A stretch of 64,000 nucleotides of DNA, from the NCBI GenBank assembly GCA_965230915.1, contig OZ246395.1:339535-403534 (forward strand), given 5' to 3'. The notes beneath the pieces are model-generated. The model ran no database searches and had not been told where the DNA came from. It saw only the letters and a program-made list of their open reading frames with translations. The first letter of the stretch is position 1, and the number at the start of each line of letters is the position of its first letter. The DNA comes from an uncultured Candidatus Saccharibacteria bacterium. GTDB lineage: Bacteria; Patescibacteriota; WWE3; 2-01-FULL-39-13. Positions 15,616 to 38,213 of this stretch are shown piece after piece. The position numbers and the translations under genes are program-made.

Positions 15616-15786
15616 TTATTCCTCCCAGTTGCGAGCCAAAATACTTAAATCTGATAAGTCGATTATTCCATCTGCGTTAAGATCCCCATCGCTTCTTCCG
15701 GATATATTTTTTAACCAGTTATCCATAATAACTTGTAAATCTTTCATATCAAACTTATTATCACCTGTTATGTCTTTTGTTTTAAT
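15616..15786 (-). other. Dockerin type-I module (two ~22-aa Ca-binding repeat segments) at the C-terminus of the giant protein
   Basis: DxNxDGxxxxxDL pattern twice, each followed by a hydrophobic helix ending in W; position corresponds to residues ~2255-2310. Confidence 0.65.
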
Positions 15787-18700
15787 TTCTGTCATTTCGA
15801 GTACTGGTTCAGACGGTTCGGTTACAGGGGTATTTGTCTCACCAGATCTAGGTATATAAGGCGTAATTCCATCACCTGGAATGTCAGCCTCATTTTTTAC
15901 TTTAATATCATTATCTTTTACATATATTTCGGTATCATTTACGTCGATGTCATCATAACGTCCGTCTTCTGAATCTACTTCATATTTAATTTTAACTTTG
16001 TGGTCACCATCTACCGTGTTGTTATCGATTGCTTTTATCTTTACTTTTTTGGATTTTTCCCAGTCATCTGGCTCGATTTCTAAAGTGCTATCGTCAATGT
16101 CGATATACTTTCCATCATCATCTGCTGACAATTTTATTTTTACCTTTTCGGATGGTTGGTCAGAAAGTTCGACCTCGATTGTATCTGTATCTCCGCCTTC
16201 TTCTACTACTGTATCTCCGCCGGTTTCTGTTACTTGAATTTCGACATTTTCTTCTCTTTCATCATCTGTAATGGTTACAACTACATTTGAAATATCCAGA
16301 TCGTCGAAATCACTATCATCTGATTCACTTGAATGTGTAATGGTTGCTGTACGGTTACCTTGAAAATCATCATCGTCAATTCCTGTTACCGTAATACTTT
16401 GCGGTACGTTCCAATCGGATGCTGTAAATGTGAGTTCTGACTCGGAAATTGTAATTTCATCGCTGGTAGTAGCAATATTAATAGTTACATTCGCAGCTGG
16501 AATTGTATTGAGCGAGATTGTATAAATATCGGTTCCGCCGTGCTCATTTACGCTTGTTGATCCGTCGCTTTGAGAAAGTGTTACCCCAGGAACTTCATTG
16601 TCTTCGACAGATACAGTAATTGAGTTGATTGAAATTCCGTCATAGAAATTATCTGTACTTAGTGCTTCATGGTCTATGTTTTTTGATCGTGTTCCATCGA
16701 TAATTAAGTTGTCTACAGCGCTTACAGTTATTGTTTGCGGCGTATTCCAATTTGAAATCGTGAATGTTAATGATGTGGGATTTACTGTTACTCCGCTATC
16801 CGGATCCGGATTTATTATGACTGTATTAGTTGGCTGAGTATTTAATACAACAGTATATGTATCGGTTGTTCCATCTTCATTTACTGTTGTTGATCCTGAA
16901 CTTTGAGACAAAGTTACTCCAGCTGTGTCGTTGTCGGTAACAGTAAAATCGACGCCGGGAATATCGAAATCATTGTAAGAAAGATCTGAACTTGAAACTG
17001 CAAATGATACTGTTCTGGAATGTGATCCTTCGGCAACATTATCGTCTGTTGCAGTGACAGTGACTGTTTGCGCAACATTCCAATTTGAATTTGTGAATGT
17101 TAATGTGCTCGATGATGTGCCCTGTTTGTATGCAGTCGCCTCTGATGTTGCCATTGAAATCGTTACATCTGATGATGGTTGTGTGTCTAGTACAACAGTA
17201 AATGTGTCAGTTGTTCCTGATTCAGAAATTGCTGTGTCTCCGCCAGTTTCAGTTACAGTTATTCCGGATGTATCGTCATCAGTTACGAGTACCGTTACAT
17301 TTGATGTTTTGCCGCTATAGTTTGTATCAGAACTTGATGATGTATGTGTTAGTACATTCGAATAATTTCCCGTGGCAACTGAGTCGTTGTTTGCAGTTAC
17401 TGTAACTGTTTGGGGTGTGTCCCAATTACCTGTTGTAAATGAGAGAGATGTTTTATCAAGATCAACGCTATCATTGCCTGTTATATTTACAGTTACATCA
17501 GAAGTCGGTTGTGATGTTAATACTACTGTATATGAATCAGATGTTTCACCTGCTTCTGCTACTTCTGTTGAGCCGCTACTTTGCGAAATTGAAATTGCGG
17601 CAGTGTCATTATCACTTATATTTACAATAACCTGTCCGATTGTTAACCCGTTAAATGCTCCATCACTTGAAGTTGATGTGTGAGTAAGAGTAGCTTGGTG
17701 CGCACCTTCTGCAATTGAATCATTAAGGGCCGTTATAGTAACTGTTTGTGGAGTATCCCAGTTTAAATCGGTAAATGTAACCGATGGTGCGGATAAACTT
17801 ACTTGTCCACCAGTTCCAGCAATATTTACTGTTACATCTGCGGATGGTTGATTGTCTAAAACAATTGTGTATGAATCGGTTGCCCCGCCTTCTGTTACAT
17901 TTGTGGAACCACCGCTTTGAGTGATTGTTATACCAGGTGTTTCATCTTCGGTAATACTTACCGAAACAGTCGAGATTGAAATTCCATCATAGTTGTCATC
18001 GCTACTTGTTGCAGTATGTGTAATATCTACTGAACCATTCCCAATATAGTTTGAATCATTTGTTGCAATTACAGTGACAGTCTGAGGAGTATCCCAATTT
18101 GAAGTTGTGAATGTTAACGACGACGCACTTAATTGCAGTCTGCTTGTAGTTGATAAATCTACTGTTACATCTGCTGATGGTTGTGAATCTAAAACTATAG
18201 TATAAGTATCAGTCGCTCCACCTTCTGTTACGGCTGTTGTTCCACCTGACTGAGTAACTGTTATTCCAGCTGTATCGTTATCGGTAATATCTACGATTAT
18301 GTCACTAATATTTAGTACGCTATATTTTGTATCGCTACTTGTGATTTCAAAGCTTATATCTCCGGTATGTGACCCTTCTTGAACTTCATCGTCGATAGCT
18401 GTTACCACAATTGTCTGTGGTGTGTCCCAATTGCTTGCTGTGAAAAGAATGTCTGGTACGATTGGGTTTTCTTCATCGGGCGTTAGCGGATCTTGATTTA
18501 AAGCTGTAACTTGTAATGAGCTTAAATCAACACTGACAGATGATGTTGGTTCGGACGCTAAAACAATTGTGAATGTGTCTGTAGTTCCTCCTTCTGTTAC
18601 GTCAGTTCCACCACCCGATTCTGAAATATTTATGTCGGCCGTGTCATTATCTGTAACAGCTGTTGTAACTGAATCGACAGAAATTGCATTGTAGTTTGAA

Positions 18701-21700
18701 TCAGAGCTCGTAGCGGTATGAGTAATAATTGAGTCTTCCGAGTCTTCATCTATATCATCGTTTACGGCCGTAACTGTTACTGTTTGTGCGCTACTCCAAT
18801 CTGAATTTGTGAAAGTTAAAGTACTTTTATCTAGTGAAACTTCTGAGTCATGATCAATAGCAACAGTCACATCGTTTGTTGGTTGTGATGTAAGCACAAC
18901 TGTATATGAATCAGTAGATCCACCTTCTGTTACGGCTGTTGTACCGCTTGATTGTGTAACTGTTATACCAGCTGTATCGTTATCGGTTACTGTTGCTGTT
19001 ATAGATCCGATTGAAATATTGTTGTAATTTCCGTCAGAGCTCGCCGCCGTATGATTTATTGTTCCACTATGTGTTCCTTCGACTATCGAGTCATTTACAC
19101 CAGTAATAGTAACTGTTTGTGGTGTGCTCCAATTTGATGTTGTAAATGTAAGTGTTGGATTATCTACACTGACTTGTGAATCTGGAGAAACCGTAATCGT
19201 AACATCGGATGTTGGTAATGTTGAAAGAGCAATTGTGTACGAATCGGTTGCTCCACCTTCTGTTACATTTGTTGAGCCAGAACTTTCTGAAACTGAAACG
19301 CCGGCAGAATCATTATCAGTGATTTTTACAGTTTTTGTGGGGAACGAAAGTCCATTATATTTAGCATCGGAGCTTGTTGCCGTATGTGTAATTATTCCGT
19401 TGTGTGCACCTTCGGCTGTTAAATCGTCGATTGCTGTTGCAGTAATCTGTTTATTTGAATTCCAGTCTGAAGATGTAAAAGTCAAACTTGTCGGTGAAAC
19501 TTGTACTTGGGAATCTCCGCTTATGCTGACAGTAACATCAGATGTTGGCTGCGTATTTAATCTAATTGTATAAGTTGCAGTTGCGCCGCCTTCTGTAGCG
19601 TTAATTGATGTCGATGGTGTAATACTTCGTCCGGCTGTGTCGTTGTCTGTAATCGTGTATGTATAAATTACGTTTGATCCTAAAGTACCATTTGTCGGAC
19701 TTGAAAGTGTAACAATTATAGTTTCGTCATCTTCATCGATTTGATCATTAACAATTGTTACTGGAATTGTAGTTGTTGTGTTTCCAGCTGTAACAGTTGC
19801 GGTTCCACTTGCGAGCGTGTAATCTGTTCCGCTTCCAGATGCTGTGCCACCTGTTACGGCGTAGTTAACTGAAACATTTTGTGATGTTGCTGTCGAAATT
19901 GAAATTGGCAAACTAACAGAGGTTGTTGCTTCATCTCCACTTGCTGCAGTTGAAGTAAATTGAATACTTGGAATTGCTGCCGTTGCAAAGTCAGTACTTG
20001 TTTCAGTGTTTCCTCCAAATGGAACCCATGCGGAAGTGTTTCCTAACGAGTCTACAACTCGGGCTTGCCAATGATAATTTAATCCAACTGTTAGACCAGT
20101 CACACTAATTGTAGGATTTGCTTCAGATCCGGAAGTTGCCACAGGTACACTTGAAAAGTTTGCCGTTCCCGTAAATGCAGTTGTTGTCGGCTGAACTTCA
20201 GCCTGAAGAGTTAGGGTATCAGGATTATCTGCGTCATTTACTGTTGAGCCTATACACATCGCTGTTCCGTTTACAAAACCGCCAATATTTAAGGCAGATG
20301 TACAGTTAGTTTGATATTGTGCAGTCAAACTAATTGCAGGTGTCGACATGCTCTTAATAGAAACATCGTCGTAAGTCAAAGTAATTGGAGCTGAACATGT
20401 TGAAGATATAAAAGATCGAATTCCTGATGCGCCGGAATTTTGTAAGTTTGATTCTGAGTCGGTTGTAGTTAAGTCCCAAGATGTAGGTTCGGTTGTTCCA
20501 TCTTGCCATACTTTCATTCTTATTGTTGTAGGACTTGTTCCGTATGTTTGAACTCTTAGTTTATAAAAAGTATCTGCAGTAAAAGTTTCACGAGATACGG
20601 TTGTGTCTGCCGAAATTGTTGTAAGTGAAGTTGAACCGAGCAATTTTCCTGCTAGTAGTTTTAAACTTGTACCTGAAAACTGAAGTCGGTGTCTATATTC
20701 CCAATTAGTAAGTGAAGCTTGCTTTCGACTAACTACATATATAGTTTGTGTTTCATTTGTTATTGGAGCTTTATTCGATTTAACTTTAAATGTCATATCG
20801 CTATTTAATACATCCAGTCCGTCTAGCCTTTCTTGATTAGTTGTATTACAGCTTCCATGAACAGACAAACCTTGTGTTCCATTTATAGAATGCGATCCTC
20901 CTGACCCCGATTGAGCAGTTGTCCATGTTTGGCTTCCGGTTTCTGTTGTTCCCCATCCCGATGCCGCAGTTCTTGTGAATGTATCTGCAACATATGTAGT
21001 TCCGTTAAATGGAACGCTGGACACAACATTTTCGAATGATCCGATATCCATAGTTGTATTTTGTGGTATTGAGGTTCCGTCAGAGTCTTCATTCATGAAC
21101 GAATAAGCGAGCATTTCAGAATCATTAGAACCTATATCAATTGCCGGGCTTCCCGATTGTAATCTGAAGTTTCCATTCGCGGCGTCAACGAAAAGCGGAT
21201 CAACTTTTTGTGAGGTTCCATCGATTGTATAGTTTTGTGTAAATTGAGATGGAAATGGCGATCCGTCACCATCCCAGAAAATGTTATTTGTTTCTATAGG
21301 AGTCTGCCCAGTTCCAACGTATATTGCTTTAGTTCGTGCCCAAATAATATTATTCCGCATTATCAAAACATCTGTGTCGCATCCGCTACAACTTATTCCC
21401 TGTGAATCGTTCGTGCTTGATGAGTAATATGTGTTGTTGTATAAGCGAACTCCGAGAGTCGGTCCGAATGTAATGTTTTTACCATGAATAACAATAAATC
21501 TTGCTTTATCCTGGTCAGTAGATACTACGTTATAAGCGAAAACAATATCTTCGCTATTAAAATCCAGATCGTCAGTTTTTCCACCAATTTCTGAAAAAAC
21601 TCTATTCCCAATCGAAACATTGTGGTGAATAACATTTCTTTTCGCGTCATAAACTTCAATTGCATTACTTTCGATCATTCCGGATTCGGGCGGACAATTT

Positions 21701-22548
21701 GCTTTATTGTCCTTCATGAAATTGTAGGCAACTATATTGTCATTACCTTTTATATCGATTGCTTTAGCTCCATTTAGTGATTGTTGAGGAACAATATCGT
21801 TAGCAGCTGCAGTATTTTCTGAAATATCATTATATATAATAGTAAGATGATGAGGAGTTACACTCGCATCTGCTTCATTCACTTGAACATTTATCCCTCT
21901 AGAAAATTGCGTAATGGTGCTGTTTTGAATAGTAATATGGTGAGATGTTGTACCAACTTTTACTCCGTAAAAATATCCGAATGCCATGTCAGGGCAAAGT
22001 GTAAATCCCCCTTCTGCTTCAGTACCATGCGGCAACGTTGACTGGTCTGCCGTTAGTTTTAGATTCTCGATAGTAATGTAAGTTCCAATAACTTCGATGG
22101 CCGTGCTTGTATCAGGGTAATCTAGCCAGAGAATTGGTTGAGCGCCTGTTCCATATGCCCCAATTGTAATTGGACTTTCACTAGTTCCAGTCCAATCTGC
22201 TTTAATATTGTATCCGGTAAAATTGCACCCTCTATTTAAGTATAAATTCTCACCAGCAGATAAATTTACTTGTGTGCCATCTGCACCTCTACCAGTAAAA
22301 CGCTTTAAAGTTTTATATGGAGTTCCTGAAGTTCCATCGCCATTATCGTTTGCAGCATTACAATCAACATAGTAATCCCTTGCAAATGCCGAAGCCGGTT
22401 TTACTAAAGTGAAAAATACAAAAATAAGTGGAAGAATAAAAAAAAGAATCCGAAGATTCTTTGTCGGTGCATCGCCCGCAGTGTAATTCAAGAAACCATT
22501 AAGATTATTCCGAGCATGTGGACGGAAGGGCATTTTTACAAATAACAA
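15616..22548 (-). CDS. Giant (2310 aa) secreted multidomain protein: right-handed beta-helix (pectin-lyase fold) + lectin-like middle region + ~11 tandem Ig/Calx-beta-like repeats + acidic stretch + C-terminal dockerin
   Basis: Signal/TM peptide at the N-terminus; beta-helix-type repeats with NxxI/NN ladders in residues ~60-520; tandem ~105-aa repeats with consensus DNDTAGITVTQSGGTTAVTEGGATDSYTIVL.SQP..DVTV...LTFT.SNW.TPQTVTVTA.ND; two dockerin type-I Ca-binding segments at the C-terminus (DITGDNKFDMKDLQVIMDNW and DLNADGIIDLSDLSILARNW). Confidence 0.85.
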   Translation of the reverse strand: MLFVKMPFRPHARNNLNGFLNYTAGDAPTKNLRILFFILPLIFVFFTLVKPASAFARDYYVDCNAANDNGDGTSGTPYKTLKRFTGRGADGTQVNLSAGENLYLNRGCNFTGYNIKADWTGTSESPITIGAYGTGAQPILWLDYPDTSTAIEVIGTYITIENLKLTADQSTLPHGTEAEGGFTLCPDMAFGYFYGVKVGTTSHHITIQNSTITQFSRGINVQVNEADASVTPHHLTIIYNDISENTAAANDIVPQQSLNGAKAIDIKGNDNIVAYNFMKDNKANCPPESGMIESNAIEVYDAKRNVIHHNVSIGNRVFSEIGGKTDDLDFNSEDIVFAYNVVSTDQDKARFIVIHGKNITFGPTLGVRLYNNTYYSSSTNDSQGISCSGCDTDVLIMRNNIIWARTKAIYVGTGQTPIETNNIFWDGDGSPFPSQFTQNYTIDGTSQKVDPLFVDAANGNFRLQSGSPAIDIGSNDSEMLAYSFMNEDSDGTSIPQNTTMDIGSFENVVSSVPFNGTTYVADTFTRTAASGWGTTETGSQTWTTAQSGSGGSHSINGTQGLSVHGSCNTTNQERLDGLDVLNSDMTFKVKSNKAPITNETQTIYVVSRKQASLTNWEYRHRLQFSGTSLKLLAGKLLGSTSLTTISADTTVSRETFTADTFYKLRVQTYGTSPTTIRMKVWQDGTTEPTSWDLTTTDSESNLQNSGASGIRSFISSTCSAPITLTYDDVSIKSMSTPAISLTAQYQTNCTSALNIGGFVNGTAMCIGSTVNDADNPDTLTLQAEVQPTTTAFTGTANFSSVPVATSGSEANPTISVTGLTVGLNYHWQARVVDSLGNTSAWVPFGGNTETSTDFATAAIPSIQFTSTAASGDEATTSVSLPISISTATSQNVSVNYAVTGGTASGSGTDYTLASGTATVTAGNTTTTIPVTIVNDQIDEDDETIIVTLSSPTNGTLGSNVIYTYTITDNDTAGRSITPSTSINATEGGATATYTIRLNTQPTSDVTVSISGDSQVQVSPTSLTFTSSDWNSNKQITATAIDDLTAEGAHNGIITHTATSSDAKYNGLSFPTKTVKITDNDSAGVSVSESSGSTNVTEGGATDSYTIALSTLPTSDVTITVSPDSQVSVDNPTLTFTTSNWSTPQTVTITGVNDSIVEGTHSGTINHTAASSDGNYNNISIGSITATVTDNDTAGITVTQSSGTTAVTEGGSTDSYTVVLTSQPTNDVTVAIDHDSEVSLDKSTLTFTNSDWSSAQTVTVTAVNDDIDEDSEDSIITHTATSSDSNYNAISVDSVTTAVTDNDTADINISESGGGTDVTEGGTTDTFTIVLASEPTSSVSVDLSSLQVTALNQDPLTPDEENPIVPDILFTASNWDTPQTIVVTAIDDEVQEGSHTGDISFEITSSDTKYSVLNISDIIVDITDNDTAGITVTQSGGTTAVTEGGATDTYTIVLDSQPSADVTVDLSTTSRLQLSASSLTFTTSNWDTPQTVTVIATNDSNYIGNGSVDITHTATSSDDNYDGISISTVSVSITEDETPGITITQSGGSTNVTEGGATDSYTIVLDNQPSADVTVNIAGTGGQVSLSAPSVTFTDLNWDTPQTVTITALNDSIAEGAHQATLTHTSTSSDGAFNGLTIGQVIVNISDNDTAAISISQSSGSTEVAEAGETSDSYTVVLTSQPTSDVTVNITGNDSVDLDKTSLSFTTGNWDTPQTVTVTANNDSVATGNYSNVLTHTSSSSDTNYSGKTSNVTVLVTDDDTSGITVTETGGDTAISESGTTDTFTVVLDTQPSSDVTISMATSEATAYKQGTSSSTLTFTNSNWNVAQTVTVTATDDNVAEGSHSRTVSFAVSSSDLSYNDFDIPGVDFTVTDNDTAGVTLSQSSGSTTVNEDGTTDTYTVVLNTQPTNTVIINPDPDSGVTVNPTSLTFTISNWNTPQTITVSAVDNLIIDGTRSKNIDHEALSTDNFYDGISINSITVSVEDNEVPGVTLSQSDGSTSVNEHGGTDIYTISLNTIPAANVTINIATTSDEITISESELTFTASDWNVPQSITVTGIDDDDFQGNRTATITHSSESDDSDFDDLDISNVVVTITDDEREENVEIQVTETGGDTVVEEGGDTDTIEVELSDQPSEKVKIKLSADDDGKYIDIDDSTLEIEPDDWEKSKKVKIKAIDNNTVDGDHKVKIKYEVDSEDGRYDDIDVNDTEIYVKDNDIKVKNEADIPGDGITPYIPRSGETNTPVTEPSEPVLEMTEIKTKDITGDNKFDMKDLQVIMDNWLKNISGRSDGDLNADGIIDLSDLSILARNWEE
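16400..19950 (-). repeat. In-frame tandem coding repeats (~315-330 nt units, ~11 copies) encoding Ig-like/Calx-beta-like domains
   Basis: Protein-level periodicity of ~105 aa with conserved VTEGG.TD.YT..L...P..DVTV...LTFT..NW..PQTVTV core; copies are divergent at the nucleotide level. Confidence 0.7.
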
Positions 22549-23129: not shown

Positions 23130-24350
23130 CTACTCATATCTTAACGCCTCAATCGGCTGCAATTTCGACGCCTTTTGTGCTGGGTACCATCCGAAAATTA
23201 TTCCGATTAAACACGAGACTCCTGCTGATAATAAAATTGCATTTGGCGCGAATACAAATGACAGGTTCATTAACTTGGTGATTCCGTAAGATGCTCCTAC
23301 CCCGATTAAGATTCCGATTATTCCTCCTGTTATAGTTAGCACAACTGCCTCGACTAAAAACTGTGTAACGATTGTTCGGCGTTTTGCTCCGAGGGCTTTT
23401 CTAAGGCCTATTTCCATTGTTCGCTCGGTGACGGTTACTAGCATTATATTCATGATTCCAATTCCTCCTACTATTAAAGAGATTGCGGCGATTCCAGCTA
23501 ACAATGATGTGAAGGTTCCGGTTACTTCGCTGATTGTGTCGAGTAAATCTTCTTGTGAAGAGATTGAAAAATCGGCATCGTCTGGAGTATCTAGATTATG
23601 GCGCTCTAGTAAAAAGAAACCGATTTGGTTTTGTGCAGCTTCCATTACGTTTTCGTCTTTTGCAGTTACATAAATTGTCGAAACGTAATCGACTCCGAAT
23701 AATATATTTTGTGCAGTTGAAAGTGGAATGTAAACGGCTTCGCTTGAACTTCCGAATCCAGAAACTTCTTCGGAGATTCCAACGATGTCATAAGTGCTGC
23801 CTTCGATTTTTATTTGTGCCCCAACGCCTGTGCTGGAATTTCCGAATAATTCGGTTGCAACATCGGGAGTTATAACTGCAACTTTTCTTGTAGATAAAAT
23901 GTCGTCGGTTGTAATTGGGGATCCAATTGTTACTTCTATATTTCGTAAATCAAAATAATTTTCACTGACTCCAATTACAGTTGCGTTCATGTTTGCATCT
24001 TCGTATGCTAGCTGCCCCCTCGAAGAATATTCTGATGCAACTTTATCGATTGTTGTTATTCGATCTTCTGTCGCGATGGCTTCGGCGTCTTGTAAAGTTA
24101 ATGTAGTTCCGCTTCCTGATTGTCCGCCAAGAAAGCCGCCACCGCTACTTGCACCTGGTCTAATAGTTAATAAGTTTGCTCCTAAAGATTGTATTTGAGA
24201 TTTGATGCTTTCCTGGCTTGCTTGTCCAAGAGACATTAATGCAATAACTGATCCGACACCAATAATTATTCCGAGTGCAGAAAGTGCTGTTCGCAGTTTG
24301 TTTGTTGTTAAGACTGATATGGATTCCTCAAAAATTTCTATTAAGTTCAT
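23130..24350 (-). CDS. macB: ABC transporter permease, MacB/FtsX family (large periplasmic domain)
   Basis: N-terminal TM, ~220-aa periplasmic domain, three C-terminal TM helices with the FtsX fold; start overlaps the ATPase stop (4 nt). Confidence 0.85.
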   Translation of the reverse strand: MNLIEIFEESISVLTTNKLRTALSALGIIIGVGSVIALMSLGQASQESIKSQIQSLGANLLTIRPGASSGGGFLGGQSGSGTTLTLQDAEAIATEDRITTIDKVASEYSSRGQLAYEDANMNATVIGVSENYFDLRNIEVTIGSPITTDDILSTRKVAVITPDVATELFGNSSTGVGAQIKIEGSTYDIVGISEEVSGFGSSSEAVYIPLSTAQNILFGVDYVSTIYVTAKDENVMEAAQNQIGFFLLERHNLDTPDDADFSISSQEDLLDTISEVTGTFTSLLAGIAAISLIVGGIGIMNIMLVTVTERTMEIGLRKALGAKRRTIVTQFLVEAVVLTITGGIIGILIGVGASYGITKLMNLSFVFAPNAILLSAGVSCLIGIIFGWYPAQKASKLQPIEALRYE

Positions 24351-25033
24351 TTTTTGCCCTTCCCTTTCGTGTCGCTGACGAGTTTGCCGTCAACAAGTTT
24401 TATAACTCGGTTCGCACGTTGTGCGATTTCATCATTGTGAGTAATTACTATAATAGTATGTCCCTTTTTGTTTAGGTCCTTAAAGATGTCGATTATTTCA
24501 TCGCTTTGATTTGTAGGAAGGTTTCCGGTTGGTTCATCGGCTAATAATATAGATGGTTCCATTGTTAGAGCGCGGGCGATAGCGACTCTTTGTTTTTGAC
24601 CTCCGGAAAGTTCATTAGGTCTATTTGAAAGTTTATTTCCAAGTCCGACAACATTTAAATATTTCTGTGCACGTTCCAATCTTTCAGATTTAGAGAGTCC
24701 ACCATAAGCCATTGGCAACGAAACATTTTTTAATGCGGATGTTCTTGGTAATAAGTTGTATGACTGAAAAATAAATCCAATTTCTTTGTTTCGAATTTCA
24801 GCGAGTTCGTCGTCGCTTAAATTTTCTACGTTTTGATTATTTAAAATATATTGTCCGCTAGATGGAACATCGAGAGCTCCGAGTATATGCATGAGTGTAG
24901 ATTTACCAGAACCAGATGGGCCGATTATCGCGACAAATTCTCCTTTATCAATTTTAAAGTTGATATCAGATAAAGCGTGAGTCGTAACGTCTCCGTTTAC
25001 GTAAGTTTTAGTGATGTGTTTTACTTCGATCAT
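24347..25033 (-). CDS. ABC transporter ATP-binding protein (MacB/LolD-type)
   Basis: Walker A GPSGSGKST, signature LSGGQKQRVAIARAL, Walker B ILLADEPTGNL, H-loop ITHN. Confidence 0.9.
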   Translation of the reverse strand: MIEVKHITKTYVNGDVTTHALSDINFKIDKGEFVAIIGPSGSGKSTLMHILGALDVPSSGQYILNNQNVENLSDDELAEIRNKEIGFIFQSYNLLPRTSALKNVSLPMAYGGLSKSERLERAQKYLNVVGLGNKLSNRPNELSGGQKQRVAIARALTMEPSILLADEPTGNLPTNQSDEIIDIFKDLNKKGHTIIVITHNDEIAQRANRVIKLVDGKLVSDTKGKGKK

Positions 25034-25034
25034 G

Positions 25035-26264
25035 TTATTGTCTAACTCTTACTGCTCCGCCTGTTCCGAATGTGCCGATACGAACATTGTTTTGTGTGTT
25101 TGTATTCGTAAAGCCACTCGTCGAAAACGCCGTTACAATAACTTCATCGCCTTCATTTACCCCACTAATAATTTCTGTGTTATCATCGCCGATTAAGCCA
25201 GTTTGAACTTCGACTTTTCCATTTAAAGTTGTTACATAGGATTTGCCATCTCTATCTTTTGTAACTGCACTTGATGGAACCGAAACCACATCAGCTTTTT
25301 CTTCGACAATTATTTCGGCATCAACGCTCATGTTTGGTAAAACGTTTGGAGAATCGTTTTCGAATTGAATTATTACCGGATAATTCGAAACTCCATTTGA
25401 TGACTCGCCTATTCTGTCGATTCCGACAACAGTTCCTGTGAAAGTTTCATCTTTAATACTGCTCATAGTTAAGTTAACTTTTTGCCCGACTTTTATTTTA
25501 TTTATATCGACTTCGGTTATGTTTACAGTTGCAAGTGGAGTTCCCTCTTGTTTAATTGATGCGACAGTTTGAATTGATTTTTCGGATACAGAGTTTTCAA
25601 CTTTCATACCTGCGACTGCTACGATGTTTGCGACTGTTCCGCTAGCCGGAGCTGTAATTATCGGAGATTGCGATTGGTAATTTATTGATGATGAACTTAA
25701 CGATAATTGTTGTTGCGAAATATTTTTGGCTTGTAAATCGTATGATTGTTTCGCAGAAACATATTCTGCATATGCAGTATCGTATTCTAATTTTTCTGCA
25801 TCGGTTTGATAGCTCGTTCGTTTTTTAACTTCATCAAGTTTCGCTTCTTTTTGCTTTAATGTGTTTTGAAGATTTACGAGTTGATTCTTAGCTTCTTGAA
25901 GTTGAATTTGCGATCCGGTGTAACTTGCGAGTGAACTTGTTTGGCTCGCCTCCCCTTCGTTGTCTAGTGTTACTTCCATTAATTTCTGACCTTCGGTAAC
26001 TGTGTCACCTTCTTTTACAAAAACTTCTTTGATGATTCCATTTACTGAAGTTGTTACCGCTAGATAGTTAGCAGTTGCGATTGTTCCCGATGCTGCGATT
26101 GTGGACTTAACTGTTCCACGTTCAGCAGTTCTGGTAAGAGTTGGAAGTTCTGATGTAGATGAATTACTCATGGAATTTTTATAGTAGAAGTAGCTTACGC
26201 CGCCGACTACTATAAGGATTGCAGGAATGATCCATTTATAGTTAGTTTTTAAATATTTTTTCAT
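25035..26264 (-). CDS. macA: Periplasmic adaptor subunit, HlyD/MacA family
   Basis: N-terminal TM anchor, long coiled-coil (QLQEAKNQLVNLQNTLKQKEAKLDE...), beta-barrel/lipoyl-like segments; translationally coupled to the ABC ATPase. Confidence 0.8.
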   Translation of the reverse strand: MKKYLKTNYKWIIPAILIVVGGVSYFYYKNSMSNSSTSELPTLTRTAERGTVKSTIAASGTIATANYLAVTTSVNGIIKEVFVKEGDTVTEGQKLMEVTLDNEGEASQTSSLASYTGSQIQLQEAKNQLVNLQNTLKQKEAKLDEVKKRTSYQTDAEKLEYDTAYAEYVSAKQSYDLQAKNISQQQLSLSSSSINYQSQSPIITAPASGTVANIVAVAGMKVENSVSEKSIQTVASIKQEGTPLATVNITEVDINKIKVGQKVNLTMSSIKDETFTGTVVGIDRIGESSNGVSNYPVIIQFENDSPNVLPNMSVDAEIIVEEKADVVSVPSSAVTKDRDGKSYVTTLNGKVEVQTGLIGDDNTEIISGVNEGDEVIVTAFSTSGFTNTNTQNNVRIGTFGTGGAVRVRQ

Positions 26265-26309
26265 ACGCGAAGTATACGCCTAGAAAACTGAAAAGGTGCT
26301 GAGAGAGTA

Positions 26310-26819
26310 TTAATTTGTGAATTCTTGTATGAGCTTACTCAATAATTCTATTCTACTTTTCTCAGCCTCCAACAAATGTAATGGAAAGTGTTGTTCATAC
26401 TTATGGTGGATTAATTTGTCTTTTTTGGATAAAAATTGTGTATGGAATACTTTTTTGCACATATCGCTACTGTATCCACTGATATTATGCCCGAGGATTG
26501 TTAATAGAAGCCCTTCTAGACAGGGTGATGAGAAATAAACGCGGAAATCATACTGCTTGATTTTAGCTTGGTATTTTTCTGAAATAGGCATATCAGAGTC
26601 AAGCAGAATAAACTTTTCGTTGAAATCAAACGCCTTTACTTGCCTTATCGCGTGGTCTATTACACTATGTGGTCCTCCACCACCTCCGTTTGTTATTACT
26701 ATTCTAGTTTCATTTTTTTTCGCATATTTGCTATTGATATACCGCATTAAAGCTTCTTCCGTCGGACCTTCTCCATAAGCAAGTTTAGTTTTAAGTATTG
26801 GGCGGATGAATCGTCTCAT
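26310..26819 (-). CDS. RloB/DUF4276-like small protein (TOPRIM-like) - partner of the AAA_21 ATPase
   Basis: 169 aa; N-terminal LAYGEGPTEEALMRYI resembles the (V/C)EG.TE motif of RloB/DUF4276; C-terminal SSPCLEGLLLTILGH resembles the NPcFE.WlLlH motif of RloB; starts 3 nt after the ATPase stop. Confidence 0.5.
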   Translation of the reverse strand: MRRFIRPILKTKLAYGEGPTEEALMRYINSKYAKKNETRIVITNGGGGGPHSVIDHAIRQVKAFDFNEKFILLDSDMPISEKYQAKIKQYDFRVYFSSPCLEGLLLTILGHNISGYSSDMCKKVFHTQFLSKKDKLIHHKYEQHFPLHLLEAEKSRIELLSKLIQEFTN

Positions 26820-26822
26820 ATT

Positions 26823-28034
26823 CTATATATTAGGTAGTCCTCCGTACGCTCCAGAGAAGTACTTAGCATGTAAATTTTCGTCCGGTCTTATTCCCTTAAT
26901 ACTATCAAGTCGCCATACGATGCTGCTTCCTTTTCTATCCTCCTTTTCCACCATTAATATTTGATATTTATCGAGTTTATTGAATATGTGGTACTGATGT
27001 GTTGTGAATATGAACTGGGCATTATTCTCGTTTATATCTTTAGATGTAAATAGATTTATCAGTTCATTTACCATATTAGGGTGCAGAACATTGTCAAATT
27101 CATCTATGATGGCAACGCTACCTTTCTTGATTGCTACTAGCATTATTTTCAGCAAATGTATTAACCGTCTTGTACCGCTAGATTCTAGTTCATACGGTAT
27201 TATAAATTCATTTTTTAGGAATTTATGAAATCCAAATGCGCTATATTTCGCATTGGATTTTTTATTTTTTTGTTTTTCGTCATCTTCAGTAAATGTGAGT
27301 AAGTCGTGCATACCAATATCATATTTTTTCAAGAGGTCAATGATAACCAGCTTTATTGCTTTGTTTTCTTCAAGGAATTCAATTAGGCTATTTTCATTAT
27401 CGTCTGCAGATTTTCTTTCATGAAGGATATCAGTGTAAGCTATGCTGCAATAAATCGAATGCCAATAATCAAATATGTCGCTTATGTATTTGTTGTTAGA
27501 TTTCTCAACAACAGATAAAAATGAAGCATTTGGGGGCACTAGTTCCCTAAATTTAGCGACTGAGGACAATTCTTCTGAAAATTTATATACATAATTATTA
27601 CTTTTAAATTCTCTTTGGAATAAAGATGCATATCGATTCGTTTTATGGTTCCATATTTTTAGTGACTCTGACTCAATTATATTTTTATTTAGAGTAAGAC
27701 TATACTTAAAGACATTCTTTTGTGTCTCAAAGGTTACTGACAAGTCTGTAGGTTTACGATTATCAGGTAGTCCGAAGGTCACGAAAGGCATGTACCTAGA
27801 TTTATTTTGGCTAAATGATTCTGTTAGAACCCATTTTATGAAGGGAATTACTCTTAGGGCATTCGTTTTCCCGGTCGCATTAGCTCCAGTTATGGCGAGA
27901 ACCTTAGTTATTCGTCCATTATTTCTAGACTTTATATATGATTCTGAGAGAGGGGCTTTGTTATTAACCTCTAAATCAACCGTAGCTTCCTTAAGAAAGG
28001 AGTAGAAGTTTTTAAAAGTATAATTATGGATCAT
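26823..28034 (-). CDS. AAA_21-family ATPase (AbiLi / RloA / PD-T4-4 A-type)
   Basis: Walker A ITGANATGKTN near the N-terminus, long insertion, then ABC-signature-like ESSGTRRL, Walker B SVAIIDEFDNVLHP and H-loop FTTHQ near the C-terminus: the split ABC-like NTPase layout of PF13304 proteins. Confidence 0.8.
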   Translation of the reverse strand: MIHNYTFKNFYSFLKEATVDLEVNNKAPLSESYIKSRNNGRITKVLAITGANATGKTNALRVIPFIKWVLTESFSQNKSRYMPFVTFGLPDNRKPTDLSVTFETQKNVFKYSLTLNKNIIESESLKIWNHKTNRYASLFQREFKSNNYVYKFSEELSSVAKFRELVPPNASFLSVVEKSNNKYISDIFDYWHSIYCSIAYTDILHERKSADDNENSLIEFLEENKAIKLVIIDLLKKYDIGMHDLLTFTEDDEKQKNKKSNAKYSAFGFHKFLKNEFIIPYELESSGTRRLIHLLKIMLVAIKKGSVAIIDEFDNVLHPNMVNELINLFTSKDINENNAQFIFTTHQYHIFNKLDKYQILMVEKEDRKGSSIVWRLDSIKGIRPDENLHAKYFSGAYGGLPNI

Positions 28035-28130
28035 GGCTAGATATTACAATATCTGTAGATTTTAGTCAATAATCGCGGTTTTTTCGTCAAATCTCGACTT
28101 AATTACTGGTTTAATGTATAATTTCGGAAT

Positions 28131-29063
28131 ATGTTTACAAAAACTATATTTGCTTCGAAAGTCTCAACAGATGTGAAAAATGCGATAAAAGACTGTCTTT
28201 TATGCTTTATATACCGTAAGCAAGACTTGATTACATTTCTTAAATCTTGTAATTTTACGAGCCAAGATTTGCGCATGGTTACTACAAATCTCACAAAGTC
28301 TCAAATAATCGACATGTCATTTTCAAATATTGAATCTAGGCCGGATAAAGGGGTCGTCCAATATAAGTCTGTGATTGAGACTTTGATCTTTTGGAGTGAT
28401 TTTGATTCCTATTGGTTTAGAAACGGCAACTTAGATAAGGATGTTGCAATTGAAAGTCAAAATAGGTTAAAGAAAATTCTTAGTGTGAAAACGGATCAGG
28501 ATAGACTCAAACAAGAGGAGATTCAAAGAAAAACTCAATTAGAATCGATTAAAAGCAAGCAAAAGACGCTAGAAGACTTGAATGAAAGGTTTACAGTTCT
28601 ATGTAAAATGTCTGAGAATGCGCAGAAAAGAGGGATTGAATTCGAGAAATTCTTAGTGGACTTGTTTAACTTGTCTGATATAAAAATTGACGCCCCGTTT
28701 AAATTAAAAGGAGAACAGATTGATGGAAGTATAAATTTAGGGGGCAATAATTATATTTTAGAAGCTAAATGGCAAGATTTAGCTTCTGCCAACGATCAGC
28801 TATATCAATTTGCTTATAAAATTGAAAGCAACACCCTCTATCCTAGAGGGATATTTATATCTATAAATGGATACTCTAGTGAAGTTATTGATAGAGTTAC
28901 CCATAATAAGAAGCCACAGTTAATATTAGTTGATGCTAGCGATCTGCTTTTCGTATTAGAAGGACGTGTAAATTTATCAGATTTGCTGAACTTGAAAATA
29001 AAACATGCACAAACTCGAGGGGAAATTTATATAAACGCTTTTAAATTATTAGAAGCTAAGTAA
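28131..29063 (+). CDS. Mrr-like PD-(D/E)xK restriction-endonuclease-domain protein with N-terminal unknown domain and coiled coil
   Basis: C-terminal half: GIEFEKFLVDLF ... KGEQIDGSINL ... YILEAKWQD matches the Mrr_cat core (G.FE; D.G.ID; E.K). Transcribed divergently from the ATPase with only 6 nt between a TATAAT box (28113-28118) and the ATG, suggesting a near-leaderless mRNA. Confidence 0.5.
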   Translation: MFTKTIFASKVSTDVKNAIKDCLLCFIYRKQDLITFLKSCNFTSQDLRMVTTNLTKSQIIDMSFSNIESRPDKGVVQYKSVIETLIFWSDFDSYWFRNGNLDKDVAIESQNRLKKILSVKTDQDRLKQEEIQRKTQLESIKSKQKTLEDLNERFTVLCKMSENAQKRGIEFEKFLVDLFNLSDIKIDAPFKLKGEQIDGSINLGGNNYILEAKWQDLASANDQLYQFAYKIESNTLYPRGIFISINGYSSEVIDRVTHNKKPQLILVDASDLLFVLEGRVNLSDLLNLKIKHAQTRGEIYINAFKLLEAK

Positions 29064-29082
29064 TATTTTGTATGCTTTCAAT

Positions 29083-29157
29083 GATTAATCCGTGATTCAA
29101 GTTGTCGACGGAGAGATAAAGATTTTGACTGAAGGAATTGTTAAGAAATACAATTAA
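29083..29157 (+). pseudogene. Degraded duplicate of the 3' end of the peptidase-S51 gene (last ~25 codons, with an in-frame stop)
   Basis: Hand alignment gives ~78% nt identity over ~78 nt to 31191..31268, including an exact 17-mer GTTAAGAAATACAATTA. It translates in the same frame to D*SVIQVVDGEIKILTEGIVKKYN* versus DNSAIQVVNGEMKIIGEGVVKKYN*. Confidence 0.5.
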
Positions 29158-30143
29158 CTTCCAGCTTTTCTCAACTCCTCCAACAACCTCTCTTCCACTT
29201 CAACCTCCCCTGCTTCCATATTCATCTTCAAAGTTTTATTACTCTGTTCTCCGGAAACAAAAATCTCGTCCACTCCATCTAACTTCTTTGCTCCCTTTAT
29301 AGCTCCAACAATTCTTGAATTCTCCTTCTTAAAATCATCTGCACTTGTCAAAATATTTGGATCAATCGCGATAACAAGATTTCCGGAATTATCGCTGTCG
29401 TCATCAAATGAATCGGCTTGAACTAAAGAGCCGGCGAATATTTGAACGATCAATGCGAGGCCAGAGCCTTTGTGTCCGCCGAAAGTTTTTATTGCGCCGT
29501 CCATAATTTCTGCTGGATCAGTGGTTTCGGCACCAGTAGAGTCGTATCCCAAGCCTTCTGGTAATTTGCGACCAGCGGTCTTGGCTTCGATTAATCCGTA
29601 ATATGCGATTGCTGATGTCGACATATCTAAAATTATTGGATCACCTTCGGTTGGAACTCCATATGCAAATGGATTTGTGCAAAACATTGCTTCGATAGAT
29701 CCGAACGGCGCAGTCGTTTTAAATGGAGCTGACGCGAATGCGATTCCAATTAAATTTTGTTCTGCAATTTTTTGAACATAGTAGCCGAGAGCTCCGGTTG
29801 ATTCGCCGGTATTAAAATTTCCGGCAATTCCGATTCCTGATTTTTTAGCTTTCTCGATTGCGATATCGCATAACGAATCCATGACGACCATTCCGTTTGT
29901 GTGATTTCCATTAACTAGTGCTGATACCGGAGTTTCTTTTATGGTTTTTGGTTCAGATGCTTCAGGATTTTTTGGAAGCCCATTGCCGATTAATTTAACA
30001 ACGCCTTGGTTGCTGCCACGAAGTTGAGCGTACATTAAAACTTTTAATATTGTTTCTGCCTCTTTGTCGGTGTAATTAAATTTTTCGATAAGTATTTTGC
30101 GGGCGAGATCTTGTAATTCGGTTATGGCGATTTTTGTTTTCAT
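29154..30143 (-). CDS. Ldh_2-family (malate/L-lactate dehydrogenase-like) oxidoreductase
   Basis: N-terminal ELQDLARKILIEKF...EAETILKVLMYAQLRG and C-terminal HKGSGLALIVQIFAGSL segments match the PF02615 fold. The catalytic His of the usual SHG motif is replaced (SNQG), so activity is uncertain. Confidence 0.55.
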   Translation of the reverse strand: MKTKIAITELQDLARKILIEKFNYTDKEAETILKVLMYAQLRGSNQGVVKLIGNGLPKNPEASEPKTIKETPVSALVNGNHTNGMVVMDSLCDIAIEKAKKSGIGIAGNFNTGESTGALGYYVQKIAEQNLIGIAFASAPFKTTAPFGSIEAMFCTNPFAYGVPTEGDPIILDMSTSAIAYYGLIEAKTAGRKLPEGLGYDSTGAETTDPAEIMDGAIKTFGGHKGSGLALIVQIFAGSLVQADSFDDDSDNSGNLVIAIDPNILTSADDFKKENSRIVGAIKGAKKLDGVDEIFVSGEQSNKTLKMNMEAGEVEVEERLLEELRKAGS

Positions 30144-30192: not shown

Positions 30193-30630
30193 ATGAACGA
30201 TGAATCAATACAACCTGTAGAAATCGATCTAACATTATTAGCTGAACAAGCTCTTGAAGACCATCAAAATAAAGATACTTACATAGTATTAGATCCTGAA
30301 AATGGAACCGAATCAGTACATCCATATTTCTATTGGGATGCTGCTGCTGCGGTTATCTCAAGAATTATTGAGGAATCAGGTATTGACCCCATTGATCTAT
30401 TTAAACGACTTAAAGATCAAGGTGGATATGAAGACAAGCCTTGGAAATTTAGTTCAATTTCTAGTGGCGCGGTTGAGGAATATGGAACTTTTGGTGAAAT
30501 GTTTTTGAACTTTTCTAGAGATGCACTTTCTTTGAAAATGGTCGAAATGAATCCGAATGTCTATGATTTGGATGAAGAAAAAAGAAGGATTGCTGGAACT
30601 AATAATCCAACTTATTTTGAGGATTCTTAA
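30193..30630 (+). CDS. Hypothetical acidic protein
   Basis: 145-aa ORF; its stop overlaps the pepE-like start (ATGA); no motif. Confidence 0.4.
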   Translation: MNDESIQPVEIDLTLLAEQALEDHQNKDTYIVLDPENGTESVHPYFYWDAAAAVISRIIEESGIDPIDLFKRLKDQGGYEDKPWKFSSISSGAVEEYGTFGEMFLNFSRDALSLKMVEMNPNVYDLDEEKRRIAGTNNPTYFEDS

Positions 30631-31268
30631 TGAAACTCATCCTCTCCTCATTTGGAATCACCAACCAAACAATCGCAAATTCGCTTCAACAATTAGTCGG
30701 TAAATCGCCTTCTGAAACAAAAGTCGGATTCATTCCAACCGCTGCAAATATTGAACCCGGCAACAAAGACTGGTTCTTTTCGCAAATCGATGGGCTTCAC
30801 AAATTCGGATATAACTATGTAGATGTAATCGATATCTCCGCCAGCGATGTAGATTGGCGCGAGCGCTTATCTCAAGTCGATGTAATTTTTATGAGTGGCG
30901 GAAACACATTCTATCTATTAAAATGCATTCGCGATTCTGGATTCGACCTTTGGTTCAAACAAAATCTCGATAAATTTGTGTATGTCGGTTCGAGCGCCGG
31001 AGGAATTGTTTGTACTCCGACGATTGCGATTGCAGGTGTTGAACCTGGTGATATTAATTATTCTAAATTAACAGATTTAACTGCGATGAATTTGGTCGAT
31101 TTCGAGGTTTCTCCACATGTTCCAGAAATGCTGCCTTACGAAAATAATGAAGCTTATGCAAAAACGATCAAGAATACGCTTTATTGTTTAGACGATAATT
31201 CTGCGATTCAGGTTGTGAATGGTGAGATGAAGATTATTGGTGAAGGTGTTGTTAAGAAATACAATTAG
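30630..31268 (+). CDS. Peptidase S51 (dipeptidase E-like) family protein
   Basis: FIPTAA...FMSGGNTFYLL..GSSAG pattern typical of the Ser-His-Glu triad context of PepE/cyanophycinase-like class-I glutamine-amidotransferase-fold peptidases. Confidence 0.7.
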   Translation: MKLILSSFGITNQTIANSLQQLVGKSPSETKVGFIPTAANIEPGNKDWFFSQIDGLHKFGYNYVDVIDISASDVDWRERLSQVDVIFMSGGNTFYLLKCIRDSGFDLWFKQNLDKFVYVGSSAGGIVCTPTIAIAGVEPGDINYSKLTDLTAMNLVDFEVSPHVPEMLPYENNEAYAKTIKNTLYCLDDNSAIQVVNGEMKIIGEGVVKKYN

Positions 31269-31835: not shown

Positions 31836-31959
31836 ATAGTTTTCACCCCCTTAGATGATAGTTCGAGTATTGCAACCGTGGCTGAGATTATCCTGTAGTC
31901 TTTTTTGGTATAATAATGGCCGCACAGTAAATCCAATATATAGAGATAGGAGAAAGCAA

Positions 31960-32469
31960 ATGTTTTTTGTGCCAGTAATGTATGATAGCAATCCGGATGC
32001 ACGTTTTGACTTGAGCAAAGAGCAAGTCAAAGGTCTGAAATCGCTCTACGTCTACATCTTTGGTAACGATTGGAAGTACGAGCTAGCGATCTTATTCGCA
32101 TTGCTCGGAGGGCATATGGCTCGGATGTTCTTAAGTTCTAAAGAAGAGGAATTTATTGAGGGCAGCGTTGTTTTCATGTATGGGTTTAAGGAATTGTTTA
32201 TCCCTTGGGCAAACAGGCTTCTTCTGAAACCCGAGGTGAAGGCTAAGGTGACCCATATTATGCTTCTCGTTCTTGAGATCAAGTTTGGTGATTTATGGCC
32301 GACTAAGATCGCCGAATTCACTTCAAACTATTGGGTGCCTACAAAATCTGCCGTACTCGAAGTCAGCGTGCAGGAAACATTTTTGCACGAAGTTGCGGAA
32401 TTAGTGCAACGCTATCCGATCGAGTTTATCGAGTGGATGGCAAATACGCCGGGCAACAAACCCGAATAA
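31960..32469 (+). CDS. Hypothetical protein (GC-enriched ORF)
   Basis: Extended -10 (TGGTATAAT at ~31900) and AGGAGAAAG SD precede the ATG at 31960 (the track ORF starts earlier at 31855); ~45% GC versus ~33% in neighbouring genes. Confidence 0.4.
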   Translation: MFFVPVMYDSNPDARFDLSKEQVKGLKSLYVYIFGNDWKYELAILFALLGGHMARMFLSSKEEEFIEGSVVFMYGFKELFIPWANRLLLKPEVKAKVTHIMLLVLEIKFGDLWPTKIAEFTSNYWVPTKSAVLEVSVQETFLHEVAELVQRYPIEFIEWMANTPGNKPE

Positions 32470-35713: not shown

Positions 35714-36235
35714 ATGGGTACCCGTCCTTTTCGCAGTCGCAATTCGTCCAAGTCGAACAGTTCTGCTCCGTCGGTATTGCCAGTTGTTTTTTGCCCCTGC
35801 TCGACGAGAACTAACCTAACTAACCCGCTAAGAATCGACGAAGAAGTTCTCACGAACATCTTGGAATGCGATTTTCCATGGCGCGAAGTCTACTACACAC
35901 TTATGAATCACGGACTCAGGTCCCAACAGGCTTGCTACTCGATCGGCGGCGTCAAAGAGCTTTTGTTTTTGTCGGCATTTTCAACAGCGCCCTTGGGTAT
36001 AAACCATGCATTTGTTTGCCAGGCATGGGCAGCGGCCATCGAACGGAAAGAATCTTACTCATACTTAATGGGTGAAATTGCCATTGCATCGTGCCACTTG
36101 GGTTTTAATGTTGAGCGAGTCGATAACTCTGAACTCTTCGTCACCGACGAGATGATAAGAAGATTCAACGAGGCGCATGCGGCGTATTTTCCGCATTCGC
36201 GAGTCTGGCCTCATCGTTATAAGCAGTACGCTTGA
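35714..36235 (+). CDS. Hypothetical protein (GC-enriched, ~48% GC)
   Basis: 173-aa ORF behind a consensus promoter; Cys/His/Trp-containing; no recognisable motif. Confidence 0.45.
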   Translation: MGTRPFRSRNSSKSNSSAPSVLPVVFCPCSTRTNLTNPLRIDEEVLTNILECDFPWREVYYTLMNHGLRSQQACYSIGGVKELLFLSAFSTAPLGINHAFVCQAWAAAIERKESYSYLMGEIAIASCHLGFNVERVDNSELFVTDEMIRRFNEAHAAYFPHSRVWPHRYKQYA

Positions 36236-37263: not shown

Positions 37264-37358
37264 CATTGACTATCCTGAATTAAATGTTAAGATTGTGCCA
37301 CTTTGCGAATGCAAAGGCACAGTGATTTTCGAAGAGTGTTTTTTCAAAGGTGGAGGAA

Positions 37359-38213
37359 ATGGCCAAGATTAGTCCATTCGCCTTAGTTTCAAGCTGTAAA
37401 AGGACCAAAGAATCAGATGACTTTGTAACAAAGCCAGATTTTGATGCGCGACCACATGAAGAAGAGATCACAGATACCACACAGGAGGAATATTTAAATC
37501 GTATGAATACCACGCCGAGTCAGAATGCAGAGAAGGCCAAACGCCCTAAGCTTGTTGTCTCATTCGAAAAGGGCAATGCCGAAAAGATGGTGTTACGCCA
37601 AGAATACGTGCGAGTCCTCAGGGAATATGCTGAACTTTTCGAGGATTGTTTTTTGGCTCAAGGTCACGTATGGGCTTGCCCGTTACCGTCGAATTTCCCC
37701 ACAGAAGCCGATGTTTTATTGGGCAATATCCAGCACACTCCATTACGGACCGTGTTCAAGAACCTGTGGCATGCGTATGATTTTCTATACACTGTCTTTG
37801 TTGCGAACGAGACCCCAAAGGATGTGCAATTTCTCGAGGTGCGATCTACAACTAGACAGGAACAACCTAATCAGGAGCAAAAAGTGGACGAACCTAATCA
37901 ACCACAAAGTCTGCATGATTTGCTGGCCTTGTTTGTGGAAGCCGCCGCGAGCCAGATGTTGAGCGCCAATGAAACGAATATGCTTGTCCTGCGGCATGTT
38001 CTTGCCGTCGCTGAAACGGGTAATGTCGAGATTTCTGTAAAGCGGCCGAAGCTCGCAAACGGTGTCGAAATCAGCATATTGAAGGATGACAAAGGCCAGA
38101 TATATGCAATTAGTATCATAGATGGCGCCGAAGAAATCGAAATTTCGTACCGCCGTGGGCCGAAAAAGACCGCCTCACAAGAAAACACACCAGAAAATCA
38201 AGTAGACGCCTAG
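37359..38213 (+). CDS. Hypothetical protein (GC-enriched, ~47% GC)
   Basis: TTGACT-N16-TAAGAT promoter at ~37266-37293 and a strong AAAGGTGGAGG SD before the ATG at 37359 (the track starts at a GTG at 37350); ~285 aa, Glu/Gln-rich, no motif. Confidence 0.45.
   Translation: MAKISPFALVSSCKRTKESDDFVTKPDFDARPHEEEITDTTQEEYLNRMNTTPSQNAEKAKRPKLVVSFEKGNAEKMVLRQEYVRVLREYAELFEDCFLAQGHVWACPLPSNFPTEADVLLGNIQHTPLRTVFKNLWHAYDFLYTVFVANETPKDVQFLEVRSTTRQEQPNQEQKVDEPNQPQSLHDLLALFVEAAASQMLSANETNMLVLRHVLAVAETGNVEISVKRPKLANGVEISILKDDKGQIYAISIIDGAEEIEISYRRGPKKTASQENTPENQVDA

Follow-up and report, generated by a model that had tools for sequence, protein, structure and literature searches.

A very divergent AbiL/RloAB pair beside an Mrr/FokI-like nuclease in a Candidatus Saccharibacteria contig: probably two separate defence modules

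AbiL is grouped with PARIS, Old and Gabija among the systems that combine an ABC ATPase with a TOPRIM protein (PMC11464382; for AbiL also PMC13064643). The best-understood mechanistic analogue is PARIS, in which the ATPase AriA sequesters the TOPRIM nuclease AriB until a phage protein is sensed, whereupon the nuclease is set free and tRNA is cleaved (PMC11464382; PMC13064643); AriB is a DUF4435-type TOPRIM protein of 35 kDa (PMC11464382). In the OLD family (P2 Old, class 2 OLD and the GajA protein of Gabija) a single polypeptide carries both domains, and Gabija additionally requires the helicase GajB. RloB, found with RloA in type I restriction-modification (R-M) loci of Campylobacter jejuni, is a Toprim domain carrying the E and DxD residues (PMC12065111). 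The locus described here lies in a window of 64,000 nucleotides (nt), the whole stretch of DNA that was analysed (contig OZ246395.1, positions 339,535 to 403,534), from an uncultured Candidatus Saccharibacteria bacterium. It comprises an operon for a 403-residue (aa) ATPase and a 169-aa TOPRIM protein and, divergently oriented, the gene for a 310-aa nuclease (Table 1). The pair is a divergent example of a known system, and the nuclease beside it belongs to a large family that is still uncharacterised. The locus is probably made of two independent defence modules placed back to back, an AbiL/RloAB operon and a stand-alone nuclease, whose adjacency is local and lacks conservation.

The AbiL/RloAB pair

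The three open reading frames (ORFs) and all the motifs quoted for them in the original prediction, which had been made from the sequence, were recovered in the ORF list and its translations, as were the 3-nt gap between the two minus-strand genes and the efflux-operon flank. They are not chance ORFs, because they give strong profile matches and because the 310-aa and 169-aa proteins have many full-length relatives.

The first protein of the pair has the features expected of its AbiL counterpart, since the 403-aa ATPase matches both the PADLOC AbiLi model PDLC02335 (E 1.8e-69) and, within the AAA_15/AAA_21 type of ATPase, Pfam AAA_21 (E 1.2e-29; 104.8 bits, the gathering score being 27). It contains a Walker A motif GANATGKT (50-57), ESSGT (284-288), a Walker B motif IIDE (309-312) and FTTH (343-346). 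Its ATP-binding and hydrolysis motifs are intact, and it keeps every position that is conserved among 71 AbiLii-paired ATPases with a median length of 395 aa (G50, N52, G55, K56, T57; E284, S285, G287, T288; D311, E312; H318; H346). Its nearest relatives, found by a word-index homologue search and by tblastn against plasmids, are only about 28-32% identical; the word-index search returned just six, all distant, including the best one at 32%. The AriA models of PARIS in PADLOC also match it (E 2e-30). This ATPase was also seen to match phrog_5836 (E 1.8e-72) over positions 5-404 of that 1071-position profile; therefore, AbiLi-like ATPases are also found in phage genomes, possibly within longer proteins.

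The second protein matches the PADLOC AbiLii model PDLC02338 over residues 45-168 (E 5.2e-15), as expected for the second protein of AbiL, and its motifs are YGEGPTEE (E17..E21), LLDSD (D74, D76) and SPCLEGLLLTILGH (99-111). The predicted structure, with a predicted local distance difference test score (pLDDT) of 96.7, is similar to the TOPRIM regions of OLD and GajA, with a glutamate after strand 1 (E17) and the D74-x-D76 pair after strand 3, which makes it a Toprim protein in fold and residues, with the acidic residues for metal binding intact. The word-index search found zero relatives of it; an exhaustive HMMER search yielded 539 cluster representatives, almost all of 165-185 aa and the nearest 40% identical. 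In an alignment of 50 of these relatives E17, G18, E21, G47, D74, D76, P99, C100 and E102 show little or no variation, and 44 of the 50 match Pfam RloB at E <= 1e-3. The locus had been presented as an ATPase with an RloB/DUF4276-like partner of the AbiL or PD-T4-4 type. The AbiL/RloB part of this description holds, on the PADLOC models and on the pairing of the genes, and the PD-T4-4/DUF4276 part does not: at E <= 1 the 169-aa protein matched just RloB in Pfam, and not DUF4276 (PF14103), and two AbiLii models in PADLOC. The literature searched for the domain make-up of PD-T4-4 gave nothing usable. Neither Pfam nor PADLOC yielded the AriB or DUF4435 match that would be expected of a PARIS partner.

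The same arrangement recurs in other genomes. A search with a degenerate DNA pattern that covers three motifs, E-G..E, DxD and PCxEG, retrieved 91 metagenome loci with 93 profile hits to the small protein; an AbiLi-like ATPase lies directly upstream on the same strand in 83 of the 93, in two more with overlapping ORFs, while six lie too close to the contig end to be judged and two are weak secondary hits. The order seen at 26310-28034, with the genes adjacent, co-directional and ATPase first, is thus the same in 85/85 solid AbiLii hits with enough upstream sequence. An AbiLi-like ATPase is also encoded in 177 plasmid records (tblastn), and in all three plasmids that were opened the gene after the ATPase bears the annotation 'RloB domain-containing protein'. 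On one of these, a Photobacterium plasmid of 5.2 kb, only two hypothetical proteins are annotated apart from the pair. Integrases (four), type I HsdR (four), AbiEi, helix-turn-helix proteins, resolvases and PIN proteins are found among the neighbours of 69 AbiL pairs. Because of the model matches, the motifs kept, the ATPase upstream in the relatives and the pairs on plasmids, the genes at 26310-28034 are, as judged by sequence, an intact, autonomous, very divergent but typical AbiL/RloAB module.

Compared with the AbiL system of Lactococcus lactis as modelled in PADLOC, the pair has the same two co-directional genes, ATPase first, and the AbiLi and AbiLii hidden Markov model matches, but it is very divergent (the identities to its nearest relatives are those given above) and its host appears to be a small-genome bacterium, judging from a contig of 945 kb. 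The literature searched for AbiL in Patescibacteria offered nothing usable. With RloA/RloB of C. jejuni it shares the combination of an ATPase with an RloB domain, but it lies outside any R-M locus, and type I R genes stand beside a minority of its relatives. The likeness to PARIS resides in a split ABC ATPase joined to a TOPRIM protein, and the difference in the AriB partner, which the 169-aa protein does not match. With respect to the OLD family, whose two domains are fused, those of the window are split, so that the pair is in effect an OLD-family nuclease divided into two proteins.

The nuclease family and its neighbours

The 310-aa protein scores 24.7 bits against Pfam Mrr_cat (PF04471; gathering score 21) over residues 168-273, and harbors the motifs RGIEFE (167-172), GEQIDG (194-199) and ILEAK (209-213); D198, E211 and K213 are invariant in 30 sequences of the family, and E172 is nearly invariant. 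Its model (pLDDT 89.9) consists of a five-helix N-terminal domain (~13-97), a 57-residue helix (103-159) and an alpha/beta nuclease core (~164-310), and the predicted fold is similar to the catalytic domains of FokI and R.BspD6I. The Mrr-type PD-(D/E)xK core previously proposed for this protein is supported by the over-threshold match, the D...ExK residues and the fold. The family has 2993 relatives conserved over their full length, of ~300-315 aa (typically about 305), distributed in Roizmanbacteria, Woesebacteria, Falkowbacteria, Peribacteria, Bacillota, Bacteroidota, Proteobacteria and others, with the closest relatives in bacteria of the candidate phyla radiation. None of the PADLOC, NCBIfam and PHROG models matches it, and a sequence search of both family profiles (nuclease and AbiLii) against solved structures gave spurious weak matches only.

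The genomic company of the family was examined in 79 genome loci with a relative of the 310-aa protein, up to 8 kb on each side. Among the directly adjacent ORFs (n=147) there are KAP NTPase/QatA (9), GajA/OLD-TOPRIM (7) and HsdS, HamA, AbiEii and Fic (3 each); the family resides in defence islands beside changing partners (Gabija, Qat, Hachiman and type I R-M). HsdS is encoded one or two genes away in all four closest relatives from the genome scan (L004-L007), three of them metagenome-assembled genomes (MAGs) of the Patescibacteria group and the fourth, L005, labelled uncultured Pseudomonadales. In L004 the nuclease gene lies between hsdS and an ORF of 932 aa, an arrangement that recalls the 'restriction-linked ORFs' behind the name of RloB. 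The neighbours that the window shares with the 79 loci are generic ABC, membrane-fusion and two-component matches only.

Two proteins without a Pfam match recur upstream of the nuclease gene. One, of ~370 aa, is encoded two genes upstream (three in one locus) in 17 loci, mostly beta- or gammaproteobacterial (L029, L030, L034, L035, L047, L054-L056, L059, L062, L063, L068, L070, L072, L080 and others), and another, of ~300 aa, directly upstream in 9 loci. The downstream system in these loci alternates between Gabija-like and Qat-like genes, and they represent either a defence hotspot or partner genes that have escaped recognition.

It is tentatively proposed that the 310-aa protein may belong to a widespread, undescribed single-gene family of defence nucleases, with a helical domain at the N-terminus and a long helix ahead of the catalytic domain, which is Mrr/FokI-like; such a nuclease could serve as a back-up linked to restriction. 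That the protein is a classical Mrr-like restriction enzyme of type IV, dependent on modification, is considered rather unlikely. The Mrr_cat score and the invariant catalytic residues speak for that identity, the modification-dependent enzymes MspJI and AspBHI are among the Foldseek matches, and some sources annotate relatives of the protein as 'restriction endonuclease Mrr'. The PD-(D/E)xK domain with its D...ExK residues is indeed what the protein has in common with Escherichia coli Mrr and with the cleavage domains of FokI and R.BspD6I, but E. coli Mrr has an N-terminal DNA-reader domain, whereas the corresponding part of the window protein is an unmatched helical domain followed by the 57-residue helix, with no recognised DNA-reader domain.

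Proposed action, and one system or two

The action proposed for the pair follows the analogy of PARIS, P2 Old and Gabija. The AbiLi ATPase would hold the AbiLii nuclease inactive while sensing a phage cue, upon which the nuclease would be released or activated to cut nucleic acid (tRNA or DNA), and this cleavage would stop the production of phage while sacrificing the infected cell, as an abortive-infection response. The 310-aa nuclease, in turn, would act alone on DNA. Cutting both strands takes two copies of a FokI-type domain, and for that reason it would probably do so as a dimer, formed via the long helix, with the N-terminal domain picking the target in the manner of a restriction-type DNA nuclease. 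Members of the family recur within or next to operons for R-M and other defence systems, which suggests that their role in restriction is a back-up or complementary one.

It could be argued that the AbiL pair is mainly a selfish addiction module, toxin-antitoxin-like or restriction-linked (RloAB-type), and not anti-phage in its host. In that sense, RloB takes its name from genes associated with type I R-M loci (PMC12065111; PMC13064643), PARIS acts as a toxin-antitoxin pair (PMC13064643), and HsdR, integrases and plasmids figure, in the numbers given above, in the surroundings of such ATPases. This is nevertheless improbable: no type I R-M (Hsd) genes, nor any other R-M genes, were found in the 64-kb window, the lactococcal AbiL gives phage resistance in experiments (Deng et al. 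1999, as cited in PMC13064643), and addiction and anti-phage roles are not mutually exclusive.

Evidence on the relationship between the pair and the nuclease comes from surveys in both directions. The nuclease family was found in none of the 91 metagenome AbiL loci, whose surveyed flanks had a median of 3.2 kb and reached at least 3 kb in 49 loci. Conversely, only one of the 79 nuclease loci, a Roseateles MAG (L066), contains an AbiLi/AbiLii pair, and there it sits 4.8 kb from the nuclease, beyond four or five ORFs on the opposite strand. The three-gene arrangement itself was met in two Logan contigs, which encode identical proteins, so that they represent the same lineage and not independent conservation. 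A new three-gene ATPase/RloB/Mrr-like variant, as had been envisaged, is therefore not borne out, and the outcome that was named beforehand as speaking against it, that the genes never co-occur elsewhere, was essentially the one obtained in the forward and reverse surveys. That all three genes make up one integrated AbiL variant, to which the Mrr-like nuclease would contribute as a third component or a second effector, is thus very improbable, since neither the adjacency of the genes across their shared 96-nt region, nor their filling together the segment between the efflux operon and the peptidase remnant, nor the identical arrangement in two assemblies of one lineage, nor the Roseateles contig with both within 5 kb outweighs those counts, the plasmid with the pair alone and the many different systems that the nuclease family adjoins.

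Several points weigh against the reading as two independent modules with the actions proposed above. Both surveys are limited samples, and related proteobacteria that share synteny account for many of the 79 nuclease loci. The three genes occupy one bounded segment and share their intergenic region, which leaves room for a functional link particular to the lineage of the window, a less likely variant in which the nuclease would be tied to the AbiL pair. The 169-aa protein itself scores below the Pfam gathering score for RloB (PF13707; E 2.3e-5, 25.1 bits against 31.5), and residues 1-160 of the 310-aa protein have zero Pfam or PHROG matches, which bears on the target of the nuclease. Lastly, the mechanism of AbiL is still to be determined and may resemble that of PARIS (PMC13064643), so that its sensing and cleavage steps rest on analogy.

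Boundaries and surroundings of the locus

Table 1. Features of the locus and of its flanks (positions in the window)
Feature	Position	Strand	Remarks
Efflux operon: MacB-type permease, ABC ATPase, membrane-fusion protein	23130-26264	-	
AbiLii / RloB-type TOPRIM protein	26310..26819	-	169 aa; second operon gene, presumed nuclease effector
AbiLi/RloA-like ABC-type (AAA_15/AAA_21) ATPase	26823..28034	-	403 aa; first operon gene, presumed sensor/regulator
Divergent intergenic region	28035..28130		96 nt; promoter-like site each way and a 7+7 palindrome
Stand-alone nuclease	28131..29063	+	310 aa; Mrr/FokI-like PD-(D/E)xK domain; judged a separate module from AbiL
Remnant of a Peptidase_S51 paralogue	29062..29157	+	last 31 codons, internal stop; marks the right junction
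Ldh_2-family gene	29154-30143	-	
Peptidase_S51 gene	30630-31268		

The right junction of the locus is sharp: the remnant starts at 29062 and the nuclease ORF ends at 29063. The remnant forms part of a 95-nt direct repeat (29062-29156 and 31173-31267, 74% identity), whose second copy is the 3' end of the Peptidase_S51 gene. The remnant translates as NILYAFND-stop-SVIQVVDGEIKILTEGIVKKYN-stop, against NTLYCLDDNSAIQVVNGEMKIIGEGVVKKYN-stop at the C-terminus of the peptidase, with 20/31 residues identical. The degraded gene fragment noticed in the original prediction is therefore real, a copy of that C-terminus with an internal stop, and it implies that a second S51 paralogue was lost, its 5' part being replaced by the DNA that carries these genes. 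The three genes thus sit, on the evidence of this remnant, where the 5' part of a Peptidase_S51 paralogue formerly was, in inserted or rearranged DNA.

The further claim of a mobile defence islet is weak. It draws support from the right-junction remnant, and the other signs are lacking: there is no integrase, transposase or tRNA near the three genes (and no tRNA in the window), and a search keyed on exact copies of the Ldh_2 and membrane-fusion proteins on either side found the same arrangement only, with no islet-free relative. Base composition was rejected as a sign of recent transfer, since the three genes (GC 0.327-0.357; GC at third codon positions, GC3, 0.31-0.33) fall inside the spread of the 46 genes of the window (GC 0.362 +/- 0.04; GC3 0.289 +/- 0.07). 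Elsewhere in the window, the ORFs 31855-32469(+), 35714-36235(+) and 37350-38213(+) are much stronger outliers, with GC3 of 0.48-0.53 where the mean of the window is 0.29; a foreign origin is possible for all three, and 31855-32469 could instead be a spurious ORF.

A consensus scan of the 96-nt region between the two modules gave TCGACT-17-TATAAT at 28094-28122 on the plus strand and TTGACT-17-TAATAT at 28069-28041 on the minus strand, and overall the promoter-like sites show no excess over shuffled sequence. A perfect 7+7 palindrome, AGATATT-AC-AATATCT (28039-28054), lies 5-20 nt before the AbiLi start codon, overlapping the -10 element of the promoter-like site; it could serve as an operator or, just as well, be a chance occurrence in AT-rich DNA. 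The predicted folding of this region is unremarkable (z -1.2), and no Rfam matches to structured RNA were obtained in the 64-kb window. At the other end of the operon just 45 nt (26265-26309) separate the AbiLii stop codon from the start codon of the first efflux gene. Because this gap is so short, the efflux genes may be expressed by read-through from the AbiL promoter or from a promoter of their own within AbiLii.

Two giant ORFs, 15616-22548(-) and 39300-46640(-), encode 2310 and 2446 aa, respectively. The product of the former contains many tandem repeats of ~100 aa (motif ...TDNDTAG...) and a signal-peptide-like N-terminus, and for these reasons it looks like a surface protein.

As a whole, the locus contributes no new principle but one more AbiL/RloAB pair, which is very divergent and comes from a genome with a 945-kb contig, and it indicates that reduced genomes still retain costly modules of the abortive-infection type. 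It also calls for caution, in that genes adjacent within a defence islet should be taken for one multi-gene system only after a co-occurrence test. More useful, as a by-product, is the family of Mrr/FokI-like nucleases, which is large, conserved over its full length and resident in defence islands, lies outside the library of defence models tested, and is a reasonable candidate for experimental screening.

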